Source of the DNA: an uncultured Acidibacter sp.
GTDB taxonomy: Bacteria > Pseudomonadota > Gammaproteobacteria > Steroidobacterales > Steroidobacteraceae
DNA: 64,000 bases
Reading direction: 5' to 3'
Assembly: GCA_964599335.1 (NCBI GenBank)
Contig: CAZRFN010000001.1
Location: forward strand, 12,186-76,185
Positions 5,665 to 25,099 of the stretch are shown in pieces. The translations under genes and the position numbers were made by a program. A model generated the notes under the pieces. It saw nothing but the letters and a program-made list of their open reading frames with translations, searched no databases and was not told where the DNA came from. Each line of letters starts with the position of its first letter. Position 1 is the stretch's first letter.

Positions 5665-6603
5665 TCAGGAAAAGTATTGCGCTGCGAGCAGGTCGAGCCG
5701 CTGCTCGAAGTCGGCGCCGGTGGGCAGCAAGACGCAGCCCGGAGGTAACTCCTCGGCGGTGACCAAGCGGGCTGCGAATCCGCCCACCCATACTTCGCAT
5801 CGACCGCTCAGAAGTTCAGCGAGCTCGCGTAATTGGTTGAGGGCCGGCACTTCGTTCTCCGGCATGACGAGAGAAACCAGCACGGCGCGTGCATCGACTT
5901 CGAGTGCAAAGCGAGCCAGCTCGTCCGGCGGAACATCGACACCTAAATAATGCGTGCGAAAGCGGCGTGTCGCGGCAAGCCAGCTGCACATCAGGATTCC
6001 GAGCTCGTGACGTTCGCCCGAGAGCGTCGAGAGCACCAGGCAAGGACCATTGTCGGAGCGCAGATAACCGCGCGACACGCTAATGATTAAGCGACGCACG
6101 ATGTCGGTGACCATGTGCTCTTGGGCGATCGATACCTCACCGCGATGCCATCGCTCGCCGACCTCCCGGACGAGCGGCACGAGCACCGTGTTCACGACTT
6201 CGTTGGGGGGAAGTAGCGCGACGGCAGACGTCAGGACCTCTTCGACGCCAGAGGGGTCGGAGTGCTCGGTGGCGTCGATGGCTCGTTCGACGTAGGACTG
6301 TCCGCGTGTCGGACCGGGACGCGCTTGGCCCCCGGAGTCGGCTACGAGCTTTGCGAGCTCGTCGTCAGGAAGAGAAGCGAGACGGCTGATGGTGTGGCCA
6401 AGCTCGGTCGCGGTGCGCAGCAAGCGAAGGCGGGCGACGTCGGCGGCCGAATACGTGCGGCGGCCCGAGGAATCTCGAGACGGGCGCACCACTTCGTATC
6501 GGCGCTCCCAAGCTCGTAGGGTCTCCACTGTCAGGCCGGTGGCCTGAGAGACCGCCTTGATCGTGAACTGGCCCGCAGGGGGGGTCGTAGCAAGCCTGTT
6601 CAT
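5665..6603 (-). CDS. MerR-family transcriptional regulator with cobalamin-binding domain (CarH/LitR-type)
   Basis: N-terminal MerR HTH 'FTIKAVSQATGLTVETLRAWERRYEVV', 'ERWHRGEVSIAQEH' (W-x9-EH) and 'GERHELG' (ExHxxG B12 lower-ligand motif). Confidence 0.8.
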   Translation of the reverse strand: MNRLATTPPAGQFTIKAVSQATGLTVETLRAWERRYEVVRPSRDSSGRRTYSAADVARLRLLRTATELGHTISRLASLPDDELAKLVADSGGQARPGPTRGQSYVERAIDATEHSDPSGVEEVLTSAVALLPPNEVVNTVLVPLVREVGERWHRGEVSIAQEHMVTDIVRRLIISVSRGYLRSDNGPCLVLSTLSGERHELGILMCSWLAATRRFRTHYLGVDVPPDELARFALEVDARAVLVSLVMPENEVPALNQLRELAELLSGRCEVWVGGFAARLVTAEELPPGCVLLPTGADFEQRLDLLAAQYFS

Positions 6604-6618
6604 GATTTGTTCATCTCG

Positions 6619-6673
6619 TGTATAGCCTTAACCTGTACAGAAGCTTGACAGATTCCCACGCTCCTGTCATCCT
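6619..6673 (+). promoter_or_regulatory. candidate operator plus promoter upstream of the fasciclin gene
   Basis: Inverted repeat TGTATAG-N7-CTGTACA (6619-6639). -35 TTGACA (6645-6650), 17-nt spacer, TG-extended weak -10 CATCCT (6668-6673). Tandem 11-bp units aAccTgtACAg / aAgcTtgACAg (6630-6651). Confidence 0.45.
6646..6669. promoter_or_regulatory. inverted repeat TGACAG-N12-CTGTCA in the divergent intergenic region
   Basis: Perfect 6-bp arms read directly from the sequence. It overlaps the -35 box and spacer of the candidate promoter. Confidence 0.4.
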
Positions 6674-6741
6674 TCTTCTCGTCGAAACAAAGCGTACGCA
6701 GGAAAGCCGGTACGCCACAGAGCAACCAACGGAGTACTGCC

Positions 6742-7230
6742 ATGATTCGTTTCAACGCCAAGAACTTTGCCGCCGTCGCCCTTTTGGGCCTGGCGTCGGT
6801 CGCTGCCCAAGCCAACGGTTCGTCCACCGTCCTCGACGTCGCCAAGGAGAAGGGTAATTTCAGCACCCTCGCCAAGGCCATCGAAGCGGCGGGTCTCAAC
6901 GACGCCCTGACCGCCAACGGCCCGATCACCATTTTCGCCCCGACGGACGAAGCCTTCGCCAAGCTGCCCCCGGGTCAGCTCGAAGCCCTGCTCCGCCCTG
7001 AGAACAAGGACCAGCTCGTCAAGATCCTCACGAACCACGTGGTGCCGGGTAAGGCCCTCGAAGAGAACGATCTGAAGCGCACCCGCAGCGCCAAGACCGT
7101 CTCCGGTGACGACGTGAAGATCGAGCTCGTTCGCGGCCGCGTCCGTGTCGACGGTGCCCGCGTCTCGGGTGACTTCAACGCCACCAACGGCGTGGTCGTC
7201 GCCATCGACAGCGTCCTGCTGCCGAACTGA
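6742..7230 (+). CDS. fasciclin (FAS1) domain protein, secreted
   Basis: Signal peptide 'NFAAVALLGLASVAAQA'. 'LDVAKEKGNFSTLAKAIEAAGLNDALTANGPITIFAPTDEAFAKLP' and 'NGVVVAIDSVLLP' are typical FAS1 motifs. GGAG SD. Confidence 0.85.
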   Translation: MIRFNAKNFAAVALLGLASVAAQANGSSTVLDVAKEKGNFSTLAKAIEAAGLNDALTANGPITIFAPTDEAFAKLPPGQLEALLRPENKDQLVKILTNHVVPGKALEENDLKRTRSAKTVSGDDVKIELVRGRVRVDGARVSGDFNATNGVVVAIDSVLLPN

Positions 7231-11196: not shown

Positions 11197-12249
11197 GTGA
11201 AAATTTGGCAGAAAAGAACTCTGATCGTTGTCGCGGTGTTCGTGGTCGTCATCGGTCTCTTCACTCTCGAGTTCATGTCGTTCGGTGGCCAGTTCCGTGA
11301 TCTCAGTAATCGATCGCCTGGGGTCTGCAGCAACCTGCCCCTCAAAGCGAGCGCTGAAGACATCCAAATCGATCGCAATCGAAGCATCGCGTATCTCTCC
11401 TCGCTTGACCGTCGCCGTCTTGTCGAAGGCGATGACATCGAAGGGACGGTGCTTCAGGTCGACCTAGTTTCTGATCCGTTGCGAGTCGAGCCTGCGCTTT
11501 CATCAGCGCCGCCAGGGTTCAGGCCGCACGGCATGTCGCTTTATCGCATGGGCGACGGCAAACAGCGGCTGTTCGTGATCAGTCATCCTGAAGGCGCAGA
11601 TCACGTCGTAGAAATTTTCGAGCAAGACGCCGATAACCTGTTTACGCATGTAGGCTCGGTCCGAGACCCGTTGCTCGTTTCGCCAAACGCCATCGTTGCC
11701 GTCGGCCCGCAACAGTTTTATGTCGCCAACGATAAAGGCGCTACCGGCATTCTCGATCGCATCGCGGAATCACTGTTTCGCAGCGGGCTCTCGAAAGTCG
11801 TTTATTTTGACGGTGAGTCGATGACGATCGCAGCCGAGGGGCTCAAAAGCGCGGTCGGCATGGGTCTTTCTCCGGACGGTCTTACGGCGTATGTCGCAGA
11901 GACTCTCGGAAAACGTATTTCGGTATACACGCGAAATCCGCTCACCGGAGAACTCACCTTCAAAGAGCGCATCGAGATCGATGGCTCTCCAGACAACATC
12001 AATGTCGACGCAGACGGAGCGCTATGGATCGCTGCTCACGCGAAACTTCTCGATCTGATCCGACATTTCGGAGACGCGTCACACCACGCACCAACGACGA
12101 TCCTTCGCCATGCATCGGGCGTCACCACGCCAATTTATGTCAACGATGGATCCGCCATTTCTGCCGGAAGCGTCGGCGCGGCCTTCGGTGGTCGCCTGTA
12201 CATCGGCTCCATCACCGAACCTAAACTGCACATCTGCCGAATGCGCTGA
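11197..12249 (+). CDS. membrane-anchored six-bladed beta-propeller protein (paraoxonase/arylesterase, SMP-30/strictosidine-synthase-like)
   Basis: N-terminal TM helix. 'FRPHGMSLY', 'FYVANDKG', 'SPDGLTAYVAET', 'PDNINVDADGALWIAAH'. Family call from motif resemblance only. GTG start. Confidence 0.6.
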   Translation: MKIWQKRTLIVVAVFVVVIGLFTLEFMSFGGQFRDLSNRSPGVCSNLPLKASAEDIQIDRNRSIAYLSSLDRRRLVEGDDIEGTVLQVDLVSDPLRVEPALSSAPPGFRPHGMSLYRMGDGKQRLFVISHPEGADHVVEIFEQDADNLFTHVGSVRDPLLVSPNAIVAVGPQQFYVANDKGATGILDRIAESLFRSGLSKVVYFDGESMTIAAEGLKSAVGMGLSPDGLTAYVAETLGKRISVYTRNPLTGELTFKERIEIDGSPDNINVDADGALWIAAHAKLLDLIRHFGDASHHAPTTILRHASGVTTPIYVNDGSAISAGSVGAAFGGRLYIGSITEPKLHICRMR

Positions 12250-22737: not shown

Positions 22738-24658
22738 GAGCGGCGAGCATACACGTACAATCGCGCCCGTGATTCATCTGCGCAATATTCAACTTCGACG
22801 CGGTCCCGAGCCCTTACTCGAGGACGTGTCGGTCAGCATCCTCCGCGGCGAAAAGGTCGGACTCGTCGGCCGGAATGGCTGTGGCAAATCTTCACTCTTG
22901 ACCTTACTGCGCGGAGAGCTCGCTCCCGACCGCGGCGAATTCGAGTTTCCCGGCAAACTTTCCGTAGCGTCGGTGGCGCAAGAGCTGCCGCACTCACAGC
23001 AACCGGTCATCGAACATGTCATCGATGGCGACGCCGCTCTGCGCGCCTGCGAGCTTGAGCTCGCCCAAGCGGAGCAATCGGACGATGGCATGCTTCACGC
23101 TAACCTGCTCGGTGAATACGATGCGCTGGGTGGATACACGGCTCGTACGCGAGCTGCCGAATTGCTCGATGGTCTTGGCTTCGACCCGGCCGCCATCGAT
23201 CGCCCCATCGCCGATTTTTCTGGCGGTATGCGCATGCGGGCAAATCTCGCGCGAGCACTCATGTGTCGCTCCGATTTGCTCTTGCTCGACGAGCCGACCA
23301 ATCACCTCGATCTCGATGCCGTGCTCTGGCTACAAGACTGGCTGCAGTCGTACCCGGGCACACTCATCCTCGTCTCGCACGATCGAGACTTTCTCGATGC
23401 CATCATCGGTCGCGTACTGCATATCTCGGCGAAGCGCATAGACAGTTACACCGGAAACTTCAGCGAGTTCGAAACTCAGCGACTGTCACGCCTTGCGCAG
23501 CAGCAAGCTGAAAACGATCGAATCAAGCGCGAGACCGAGCGCGTTCAAAGTTTCATTGATCGATTCCGCGCACAAGCCACTAAAGCCAGGCAGGCTCAAA
23601 GCCGTATCAAATGGCTGGAGCGACTTCCGGCACTCGTCACGCAACATGTCGATGCCGCGTACGACTGGGAATTCAAGCTACCGCGGAAGTTGCCTGCACC
23701 GCTCGTCGATCTCGACCAGATCAGCGCAGGATACGGCGATCGCACGATCATCGCCGGCGTAAAACTATCGATCGCGCCAGGCGCGCGGCTCGGTATCCTC
23801 GGCCGAAACGGCGCCGGCAAATCGACGCTAATGAAAACGATCGCTGGCGAACTCGAGCCGAAGACGGGCACGCGGACGGGCGCACCCGATCTCGAGACAG
23901 GTTTTTTTGCTCAGCTCGAGGTCGATCAGCTCGACGCCTCGAGCACAGCCATCCTCGAACTGACCCGTCGCGGCGGTCCCGAAGCTGCGGCTTGGGGAGA
24001 ACAGCAAAAGCGCGACCATCTCGGTCGATTCAACTTTTCGGGCGATCGCGTGTTCGAGCCGGTGGCGTCATTCTCGGGTGGTGAACGCGCGAGGTTATCG
24101 CTCGCCATTCTGGTAGCGCGACGACCCAATCTCTTGTTGCTCGATGAGCCCACCAACCATCTCGATCTTGAGATGCGCGATTCCCTACTCCTCGCCTTGC
24201 AGGAGTTCGAGGGCGCAGTGGTCGTCGTGTCGCACGATCGAGGGTTATTGAGCAGCGTCTGCGACGAATTCGTGCTCGTCGGTCACGGCGAGGTCATGCC
24301 TTTCGATGGCGACCTGGCTGATTACGCCAATTGGCTCTCGCGTCGATCACGTGCAGCGTCGACCTCTGGCAGTTCAGATTCGAATCAGGCGCCGTCGCGT
24401 AAGGAGCGAAAACGTCAGGAAGCCGAGGGCCGAAATGCGATCACGCCCCTTCGAACCGAGCTTCGAAAGGTGGAGAAAGATCTTGAGCGCCTCGGCAAAG
24501 AGCGACTGGAACTCGAACAACGGATGGCGGACCCCAAGGCTTATGCCTCGACCGATGCGGCGCTCGCGAAGTTGCCAGAGACACACGCCAAACTCTTGGG
24601 ACGGATCGCCTCGCTCGAGGAGCGATGGCTGGAGCTCAGCGAACGACTGTCGGGCTGA
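22736..24658 (+). CDS. ABC-F family ATPase (YheS/Uup-like, two ABC domains plus C-terminal coiled coil)
   Basis: Two Walker A motifs ('GRNGCGKSSLL', 'GRNGAGKSTLM'), two signatures ('FSGGMRMR', 'FSGGERAR') and no TM domain. An alternative in-frame GTG start lies at 22769. Confidence 0.9.
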   Translation: MSGEHTRTIAPVIHLRNIQLRRGPEPLLEDVSVSILRGEKVGLVGRNGCGKSSLLTLLRGELAPDRGEFEFPGKLSVASVAQELPHSQQPVIEHVIDGDAALRACELELAQAEQSDDGMLHANLLGEYDALGGYTARTRAAELLDGLGFDPAAIDRPIADFSGGMRMRANLARALMCRSDLLLLDEPTNHLDLDAVLWLQDWLQSYPGTLILVSHDRDFLDAIIGRVLHISAKRIDSYTGNFSEFETQRLSRLAQQQAENDRIKRETERVQSFIDRFRAQATKARQAQSRIKWLERLPALVTQHVDAAYDWEFKLPRKLPAPLVDLDQISAGYGDRTIIAGVKLSIAPGARLGILGRNGAGKSTLMKTIAGELEPKTGTRTGAPDLETGFFAQLEVDQLDASSTAILELTRRGGPEAAAWGEQQKRDHLGRFNFSGDRVFEPVASFSGGERARLSLAILVARRPNLLLLDEPTNHLDLEMRDSLLLALQEFEGAVVVVSHDRGLLSSVCDEFVLVGHGEVMPFDGDLADYANWLSRRSRAASTSGSSDSNQAPSRKERKRQEAEGRNAITPLRTELRKVEKDLERLGKERLELEQRMADPKAYASTDAALAKLPETHAKLLGRIASLEERWLELSERLSG

Positions 24659-24675
24659 GTGGAATATCTGACCCC

Positions 24676-24747
24676 AGAAAGAAAAATGGGCGGATCTTTC
24701 GATCCGCCCGAACGGGGGTCACTCGTCAGAAGGGACGGTTGACGAGC
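24676..24747 (-). ncRNA. candidate small RNA (about 65-70 nt), unannotated
   Basis: Lies between a near-consensus promoter (TTGACA-N16-TACAAT) and a Rho-independent terminator on the same strand, in a convergent intergenic gap. No ORF. C/U-rich loop and CCCCC single-stranded stretch. The TSS position is estimated, not observed. Confidence 0.4.
24688..24709 (-). terminator. Rho-independent terminator (minus-strand orientation)
   Basis: GGGCGGATC-GAAA-GATCCGCCC, a perfect 9-bp stem. Followed on the minus strand by ATTTTTCTTTCT (24687-24676). The plus-strand side lacks a T-tract. Confidence 0.65.
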
Positions 24748-24750
24748 ACA

Positions 24751-24805
24751 ATTGTACCGGCCGACCCGGGCCTGTCAAGCATTTGTATAGAACAAAAGCT
24801 GTACC
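24751..24805 (-). promoter_or_regulatory. sigma70-type promoter with upstream inverted repeat (candidate operator)
   Basis: Minus strand: GGTACAG-N8-CTATACA (24805-24784), 5 nt, TTGACA (24778-24773), 16 nt, TACAAT (24756-24751). Confidence 0.5.
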
Positions 24806-24859: not shown

Positions 24860-25099
24860 TTACAGTTTTTTGTGGGATCCGTCGCAAAGCGGCGCCTTGG
24901 CCGTGTGCTTGCAGCCGCAGAACCAGACCGTTCCGGTCTTGTCGGCGTCGTATTTCATCGGCGTGAAGGCCGAACCTTTGTGTGACCCGTCGCAGAAAGG
25001 CTGCTTGGCGGACTTGCCACAGGTGCACCACCAATAGGTTTTCCCCGTCTCGACATCCACGGCATACGGGGTTTTGCTGGCAATGACTGGATCGGACAT
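24860..25099 (-). CDS. CDGSH iron-sulfur domain protein (two CDGSH motifs)
   Basis: 79 aa from ATG 25099. 'CTCGKSAKQPFCDGSH' and 'CGCKHTAKAPLCDGSH'. The longer track ORF has a non-coding-like N-terminus. Confidence 0.85.
   Translation of the reverse strand: MSDPVIASKTPYAVDVETGKTYWWCTCGKSAKQPFCDGSHKGSAFTPMKYDADKTGTVWFCGCKHTAKAPLCDGSHKKL

Follow-up and report, generated by a model that had tools for sequence, protein, structure and literature searches.

The minus strand of a 64,000 nucleotide stretch of DNA (here called the window) carries, at positions 24773–24805, a promoter that precedes a candidate small RNA (sRNA). A preliminary description of the window proposed that this promoter shares its operator and -35 architecture with the promoter of a fasciclin-domain gene located beside a gene of CarH type, and that the two units form one, possibly light-controlled, regulon. 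The question raised by this locus is whether the sRNA promoter carries a CarH operator. The window corresponds to positions 12186–76185 of contig C1 and originates from a metagenome-assembled genome of 2.7 Mb and 59% GC, with a completeness of 93% and a contamination of about 6.4%. Near relatives are mostly from lakes and rivers. The genus-wide counts given below are samples and not a census, and the relatives are not statistically independent.

The sRNA promoter and its putative operator

The sRNA site reads GGTACAG-CTTTTGTT-CTATACA-AATGC-TTGACA on the minus strand from position 24805 to 24773, where CTTTTGTT is a spacer of eight nucleotides. GGTACAG is at 24805–24799, CTATACA at 24790–24784 and TTGACA at 24778–24773. 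The comparable elements at the fasciclin site, on the plus strand, are TGTATAG (6619–6625), a spacer of seven nucleotides, CTGTACA (6633–6639), GAAGC, and TTGACA (6645–6650), which is the -35 hexamer of the fasciclin gene. Both promoter strings, and the four 11-mers into which the preliminary description divided them, are present with the correct letters at the places where it put them, and CT(G/A)TACA is found exactly 5 nt upstream of a perfect TTGACA at both sites. The proposed inverted repeat of TGTAYAG half-sites is present at the fasciclin site; at the sRNA site the distal half is GGTACAG, which agrees at 6 of 7 positions. Phasing of ACA triplets by 11 bp is displayed by the two proximal units of each site and not by the distal box, which in this two-half-site description is 16 bp from the next box at the sRNA site vs. 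15 bp at the fasciclin site. The boxes it named are there, and a fourth was overlooked at each site: TGTTCA at 6608–6613 and TGTTCT at 24794–24789. The unit is better described as a putative four-box, roughly palindromic TGTACA-like site than as one inverted repeat plus a -35.

The four boxes of the sRNA site, all on the minus strand, are the distal box 1, GGTACA (24800–24805); a degenerate box 2, TGTTCT (24789–24794), 11 bp from box 1; box 3, TATACA (24784–24789), 11 bp 5′ of the -35; and box 4, which is the -35 hexamer TTGACA itself (24773–24778). Box 2 matches TGTACA at only 4 of 6 positions, and T24789 is common to boxes 2 and 3. A sigma-70 promoter scan places the -10 hexamer, TACAAT, at 24751–24756 on the same strand. 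The spacer between TTGACA and TACAAT is 16 nt and the promoter matches the sigma-70 consensus at 11 of 12 positions.

The proximal pairs, TGTACA-N5-TTGACA at the fasciclin site and TATACA-N5-TTGACA at the sRNA site, are kept in 30 carH and 45 sRNA sites. Thus both loci have at least two 11-bp-phased TnnACA repeats, one of which holds the -35, as expected of a tandem-repeat CarH operator. The Thermus/Bacillus layout of at least three contiguous repeats in the same orientation is not displayed at either locus, since 15 or 16 bp separate the distal boxes from the proximal pair, where 11 or 22 bp would be required.

carH and the divergent fasciclin gene

The open reading frame at positions 5665–6603 (minus strand) is predicted to encode a class-I CarH/LitR photoreceptor-repressor that uses adenosylcobalamin (AdoCbl). 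The protein displays a MerR-type helix-turn-helix (Pfam MerR_1, 9e-17, residues 13–75) and a B12 module (Pfam B12-binding_2, 2e-13, and B12-binding, 2.5e-8), and it aligns with CarH of T. thermophilus (3whp, 5c8d) over 243 residues with an E-value of about 3e-30. In CarH proteins the Wx9EH motif caps the 5′-deoxyadenosyl group and the E/DxHxxG motif provides the lower-axial histidine; these residues hold and photolyse adenosylcobalamin. The counterparts here are W-HRGEVSIAQ-EH and ERHELG, which the alignment places opposite these residues in 3whp. By its domains and photochemistry motifs, the neighbor that the preliminary description called CarH-like is a bona fide class-I CarH. The genome also encodes a PduO-type adenosyltransferase and a cobalamin riboswitch, and carH is found in 39 of 41 genomes of the genus.

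The operator between carH and the fasciclin gene consists of TGTTCA (6608–6613), TGTATA (6619–6624), TGTACA (6634–6639) and TTGACA (6645–6650), given for the plus strand. The layout is TGTTCA-N5-TGTATA-N9-TGTACA-N5-TTGACA, with a box spacing of 11-15-11, and lies inside the 138-bp gap between the two genes. It is kept at carH in 30 relatives. In every genome it directly adjoins the start codon of carH, a layout classically associated with autoregulation. Here the distance between box 1 and the start codon is 4 nt (6601–6613); in relatives with three boxes it is box 2 that is found at 4 nt. With the start so close to box 1, carH would be transcribed from within the operator and its mRNA would be leaderless or almost so. 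A sigma-70-like promoter could not be assigned to carH.

The fasciclin-domain gene (6742–7230, plus strand; Pfam Fasciclin, 3.5e-35) is divergent from carH and is the first gene in the rightward unit. The gene order, i.e. carH, divergent fasciclin and then a MetE-like gene, is conserved. No terminator was found between the fasciclin gene and the next gene, and co-transcription with the gene cluster that follows is possible. The fasciclin promoter has a perfect -35 and a non-canonical, strongly conserved -10, TGTCA(T/C)nnT, which has an extended TG and in which the first base of the hexamer is C and not T. In the window the probable extended -10 is TGT-CATCCT at 6665–6673 (plus strand), 17 nt after the -35; the consensus promoter scan did not call it, and TGTCAnnnT is kept in 30 loci. 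The 5′ leader contains a hairpin, GCGTAC-N12-GTACGC (6692–6715, plus strand), which is kept in most carH loci of the genus and is located just 5′ of a conserved ACGGAGTACTGCC-ATG start region. This hairpin may have a regulatory role in the leader.

Specificity of the operator motif

The occurrence of two such composite sites in the window was originally considered unlikely to be due to chance. The pattern CTRTACA-N5-TTGACA is present twice in the window where 0.03 are expected, and only at the same two places in the 2.7-Mb assembly, but the count is circular since the pattern was derived from these two sites. About two copies per genome of the shorter TACA-N5-TTGACA are expected, as estimated from base composition. 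Scans that count boxes find only the carH and sRNA sites in this genome and nothing in five shuffles, with the spacing chosen post hoc. A position weight matrix (PWM) made only from the proximal carH boxes of other species ranks the sRNA site of the window 5th at 15.0 bits, where the maxima of shuffled genomes are 14.3–24. The carH-trained PWM does not single out this site, which by that measure is not significant alone. The PWM is overfitted to spacer bases of the carH lineage and is distracted by AT-rich, probably contaminant contigs. Three short contigs (C162, C209 and C126) are strikingly AT-rich in this 59% GC assembly and give false motif matches; they are probably contamination.

From the window alone, with its circular pattern and a PWM score that is within the null, the argument against chance is moderate. 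It is conservation across species that strongly supports a shared operator. A genome-wide scan with TGTAYAG-N6-9-CTRTACA, a form of the check originally suggested, matched only the fasciclin site and not the sRNA site, because the distal half-site GGTACAG of the latter deviates from the full pattern. The pattern TGTAYA-N9-TGTACA-N5-TTGACA, with up to two mismatches, gave about 105 matches in 61 genomes of the genus, vs. 5 for a reversed-pattern control. Nearly all are at the carH site or 58–96 nt 5′ of the sRNA (18 genomes for the sRNA), and the symmetry of the carH site results in matches on both strands at an offset of 11 bp. The motif is essentially confined to these two loci. In three genomes without a full carH (G015, G047 and G052) the pattern and the sRNA are both absent; at least 13 genomes have carH and do not have the sRNA.

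No TGTACA-like box was found within 260 nt upstream of two photolyase/cryptochrome-family genes of this genome (C1:80937–82300 and C8:12337–13700), nor within the same distance upstream of phytoene/squalene synthase genes (including that at C41:10072). If these genes are light-responsive, they use another route. The CarH regulon in this genus appears to be small and atypical.

A transcription factor other than CarH could bind TGTACA-type boxes at both loci, the adjacency of carH being incidental. Such a factor would account for the missing boxes at photolyase and phytoene/squalene synthase genes, which are the usual CarH/LitR targets, and for inverted arms of variable spacing that are unlike the textbook tandem-repeat CarH operator. 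It would not account for a site that abuts the carH start codon without exception, for boxes equal to the TnnACA/TGTACA sequences recognized by CarH/LitR DNA-binding domains, or for the absence of both pattern matches and sRNA from the carH-less genomes. We consider another factor quite improbable, and CarH remains the preferred ligand of the boxes.

The candidate sRNA

The candidate sRNA has a predicted length of about 65 nt and is at positions 24680–24744 (minus strand). The 5′ end at 24744 was placed by promoter geometry, about 7 nt past the -10, and is accurate to ±2 nt. The predicted fold starts with stem-loop 1, which has a 5–8-bp stem (24744–24724), followed by an invariant C-rich linker of 13 nt, AGUGACCCCCGUU (24723–24711), and by a terminator hairpin with a 9-bp GC-rich stem (24709–24688) and then a U-tail, hairpin and tail together covering 24709–24678. 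The minimum free energy is -30 kcal/mol (z = -4.8). The terminator T-run is present on the sRNA strand only and the downstream neighbor is the convergent 3′ end of an ABC-F gene; thus 24744–24680 appears to be an orphan promoter-to-terminator RNA.

This candidate has sequence features generally found in trans-acting sRNAs, i.e. its own promoter, an intrinsic terminator, lack of coding capacity and conservation beyond that of the flanks. A coding function was rejected: there is no ATG and no Shine-Dalgarno sequence, and a 1-nt indel in a run of C residues breaks the frame between species. A search of the whole window with 4227 Rfam families gave nothing at the gathering threshold. The best of the sub-threshold noise, suhB/mmgR (RF00519), scored 14.9 bits against a threshold of 41 (E = 1.1) and was rejected as the family of the sRNA. 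A hammerhead-like reading of CUGACGAG...GAAA, judged by eye, was also dropped, as stem II is absent and Rfam gives no match. The invariant loop ACCGUCC and the linker AGUGACCCCCGUU suggest pairing seeds for G-rich ribosome-binding sites, or alternatively a protein partner.

A 301-nt query around the sRNA site has a match in 19 of 24 genomes of the same genus, and the conserved block in this comparison extends exactly from the first box through the end of the terminator. When 185,579 species genomes were scanned for an exact pattern, a further 43 loci were obtained, almost all from records with the label Steroidobacteraceae, Gammaproteobacteria or Pseudomonadota; one bears the name Klebsiella pneumoniae. 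The segment of 36 nt that separates promoter and terminator hardly varies over 45 species, with 35 distinct RNA sequences, while the flanks diverge, and the terminator stem displays compensatory changes among relatives. A covariance model (R1) detects the sRNA in 46 of 65 genomes from a single genus of Steroidobacteraceae and gave nothing credible in 150 genomes from the rest of the order. Eight weak matches outside of the genus were rejected, these being plain terminators after genes, with no boxes.

Search for sRNA targets

Targets were sought by RNAduplex with the two invariant single-stranded segments of the sRNA against 2515 start regions, which were defined by a crude gene caller. The screen is incomplete because the gene caller missed many real genes. 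The best predicted targets included the genes for pyruvate dehydrogenase E1 (aceE) and aconitase, an HDAC-family gene and a 512-aa orphan. Complementarity to aceE, GGACGGGGGU, is found only in the nearest clade, where it includes genomes lacking the sRNA, and it is lost in distant genomes that have the sRNA. The pairing site in the HDAC-family gene is not conserved, and five genomes checked for the 512-aa orphan contain no orthologue of it. No predicted target in this incomplete set of start regions survived the conservation check. The start regions of carH and the fasciclin gene showed no meaningful pairing with the sRNA in the RNAduplex screen.

A separate observation concerns the region upstream of aceE (contig C8 in this genome). 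The sequence AGTTAACATACGGTTTTTCACA, located about 20–40 nt before the pyruvate dehydrogenase E1 start, is strongly conserved in this genome and 29 relatives. It may be a promoter or a PdhR-type site.

Genomic context of the sRNA

At window positions 24656–24720, an ABC-F gene (Uup-like, ABC_tran_CTD) ends 30 nt before the sRNA terminator hairpin. The sRNA is convergent with ABC-F in about 90% of loci, although its upstream neighbor changes and may be a CDGSH gene, an Mla/Pqi-type operon or a PLD-like gene. In the window, a small protein with two CDGSH iron-sulfur motifs is encoded at 24860–25099 (minus strand), directly 5′ of the sRNA promoter and on the same strand, and read-through from this gene into the sRNA is possible. 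In many species (e.g. L049:791–4275) a 3.4-kb Mla/Pqi-type operon, consisting of MlaE, an ABC ATPase, MlaD and an ABC_trans_aux lipoprotein, is found between the CDGSH gene and the sRNA promoter. At one locus (L017) the sRNA has a divergent PLD-like neighbor, and the two have the operator region in common.

The hairpin shared by the two units has no U-tract in the ABC-F direction, and therefore ABC-F transcripts may read through it and run antisense to the sRNA. This would be a second possible role for the locus.

The near-constant convergence with the ABC-F 3′ end, together with the empty outcome of the target screen, could also mean that there is no functional sRNA, the hairpin being a terminator shared with ABC-F and the promoter being fortuitous or driving a short non-functional transcript. 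This is hard to reconcile with the near invariance of the 36 nt between promoter and terminator in 45 species with diverging flanks, with a T-run on the sRNA strand only, or with a promoter of 11/12 that is itself conserved. In addition, the module is present or absent as a whole. Five carH-positive genomes without the sRNA have another coding sequence past the ABC-F gene and no boxes; since the entire module is missing there, operator, promoter, RNA and terminator appear to be gained or lost together. A non-functional transcript is the least probable of the explanations weighed here, and we regard the unit as a candidate sRNA with its own putative operator.

Operator spacing among relatives

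Four TGTACA-like boxes are present in all 45 distinct sRNA promoters, and the last is always the -35. The ACA of box 3 is invariant in 45 of 45, whereas the sequence 5′ of box 1 and the spacer between -35 and -10 diverge freely. The distance between the starts of boxes 2 and 3 is 5 bp in 22 species (including this genome), 14–16 bp in another 22 and 25 bp in one, i.e. it changes in 10-bp steps. The claim that the carH-adjacent and sRNA promoters have an operator/-35 architecture in common is supported by 30 carH relatives and 45 sRNA species, and in 18 of the 45 the 11-15-11 spacing of the carH operator is found identically at the sRNA. These comparisons support the reading of a shared regulon; light control itself would follow from what is known of the CarH family.

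The carH operator has two arms, each composed of two tandem repeats, and a distance of 15 bp between the arms, in place of 11 or 22, puts them out of phase. Its flanks mirror each other, with T at the center of the 5-nt spacer in 19 of 21 left arms and A at this position in 21 of 21 right arms. A model with inverted arms gives 295 position matches, vs. 241 for a direct model. The sRNA sites do not have the invariant A at repeat position 2 that carH sites have. The sRNA site of the window is a variant 10 bp shorter than the carH operator, and that of one species is 10 bp longer. This short form is palindromic in itself, with the consensus GTCnAGCATTTGT-N5-ACAAATGCTTGAC; 10 of 19 positions are matched in this genome and 13–15 of 19 in others. 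We infer that one CarH oligomer may bind through two pairs of DNA-binding domains, each gripping a pair of repeats, and that such binding would need the same helical face and not a fixed distance.

The short form could instead be a relic. The sRNA promoter would then descend from a long-form, CarH-controlled one in which a 10-bp deletion ended productive binding of CarH, and the sRNA would be constitutive or otherwise controlled in this genome. Degeneracy of boxes 1 and 2 in the window (GGTACA and TGTTCT), a site that is not significant under the carH-trained PWM, and an overlap of boxes 2 and 3 that is a geometry not described for CarH are all compatible with decay. Against decay, in 22 of 22 short-form species nGTnCA of box 1, TGT of box 2 and ACA of box 3 are kept at fixed positions among neighboring bases that diverge. 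The short form is also a good palindrome in its own right (10–15 of 19 positions), and the spacing classes are whole helical turns apart, which would be needed for both arms to face one protein. A relic operator is accordingly judged unlikely, and the short form is taken below as a working variant of the CarH operator.

Predicted regulation

The best explanation of positions 24773–24805, and one that we hold to be probable, is that they form a CarH operator on the promoter of a genus-specific sRNA, through which AdoCbl-bound CarH would repress the sRNA in the dark. Binding of CarH, the sign of the response to light, and both the expression and the mode of action of the RNA are what we infer from the comparisons above. 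In the dark and with adenosylcobalamin, CarH oligomers encoded 18 kb away would occupy the four TGTACA-like boxes. The -35 TTGACA is the second of the two proximal tandem 11-bp TnnACA repeats, and CarH on this pair would block RNA polymerase. Light would photolyse the cofactor, the repressor would leave, and the near-consensus promoter would make the terminator-ended RNA of about 65 nt. A shortage of B12 should result in the same derepression of the sRNA as light.

Repression appears more plausible than activation of the MerR type because the promoter is near consensus and the operator covers the -35 and the DNA just upstream. With this layout the sRNA is most likely off in the dark with AdoCbl, and on in the light or without AdoCbl. 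CarH would also autoregulate carH and control the divergent fasciclin unit through the four-box 11-15-11 site. The sRNA site of this genome may represent the same design with the arms 10 bp, or one helical turn, closer together. The sRNA would most likely act in trans, its C-rich single-stranded ACCCCCGUU and the loop ACCGUCC pairing with G-rich ribosome-binding regions.

Comparison with known systems

Among B12-dependent photoreceptors, CarH/LitR serves as the model, and it is widely used in optogenetics. The targets known for it are protein-coding genes for photoprotection, and the known operators consist of contiguous tandem repeats. Short, terminator-ended sRNAs that respond to light or photo-oxidative stress are found in other bacteria, e.g. 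CcsR1-4, PcrZ and SorY in Rhodobacter and PsrR1 in cyanobacteria, and several of these target ribosome-binding sites with single-stranded, C-rich motifs. Their expression depends on alternative sigma factors, PrrA/FnrL or RpaB, and not on a B12 photoreceptor. The candidate sRNA shows no sequence relation to any of them (nothing at the Rfam gathering threshold). A literature search of incomplete coverage found no paper linking CarH to an sRNA.

For this genus of freshwater Steroidobacteraceae, it appears somewhat more probable than the contrary that the sRNA is the sole conserved CarH output beyond the regulator's own divergent promoter, that light and B12 status are relayed post-transcriptionally and not through the usual carotenoid or photolyase genes, and that a two-arm palindromic operator tolerating whole-turn shifts of its arms implies a mode of CarH–DNA interaction not yet described. 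If the sRNA is a conserved direct target of CarH, this would be a post-transcriptional branch of light/B12 sensing in non-phototrophic freshwater bacterioplankton, and a single small probe would be enough to test diel regulation in these uncultured bacteria. The operators also form a natural series in which only the distance between the arms varies, by 10-bp steps, and with which the way a CarH tetramer spans DNA could be studied directly.

CarH operators in Thermus thermophilus, Bacillus megaterium and Myxococcales consist of 3–5 contiguous 11-bp repeats, nnnnTnnACAn, one of which contains the -35 TTGACA, and known class-I CarH/LitR targets are carotenoid, photolyase or sigma-factor genes (PMC9304148). 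The system described here resembles these in the domain make-up and motifs of the regulator, in the 11-bp TnnACA unit, in the -35 placed inside a repeat and in a regulator gene predicted to be autoregulated from the same region. The expected logic is also the same, i.e. repressed in the dark with AdoCbl and on in the light. It differs in that its tandem repeats form two opposed pairs, which together make up an imperfect palindrome, and in that the gap between the pairs falls into three classes, with box starts 5, 15 or 25 bp apart. The predicted targets differ as well, these being a fasciclin-led unit and a small RNA, with no boxes at the photolyase and phytoene/squalene synthase promoters.

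Class II LitR proteins of Pseudomonas (PplR1/PmlR2), also gammaproteobacterial, bind TGTACA-N12-TGTACA sites (PMC9758184). They share with the regulator described here the TGTACA hexamer, sites over the -35 and a repressor function; the spacing is N12 there vs. N5 and N9 here. PmlR2 is switched by a LOV partner and not by AdoCbl photochemistry of its own, whereas the regulator in the window has the class-I Wx9EH and ExHxxG motifs.

A further comparable layout is that of the Myxococcus xanthus CarA/CarH operator. It has been described as two inverted repeats, pI 5′ of the -35 and pII over the -35 (cited in PMC9304148), and the current reading of this DNA is one of five 11-bp repeats in phase. 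The two operators are alike in being bipartite, partly palindromic and about 45–55 bp long, with the proximal part over the -35 TTGACA. Unlike in Myxococcus, the arms here are 4 bp out of the 11-bp phase and differ between species by 10-bp indels. The light switch predicted here is of a known kind; the design of its operator is unusual, and its predicted target is of a kind not previously described.
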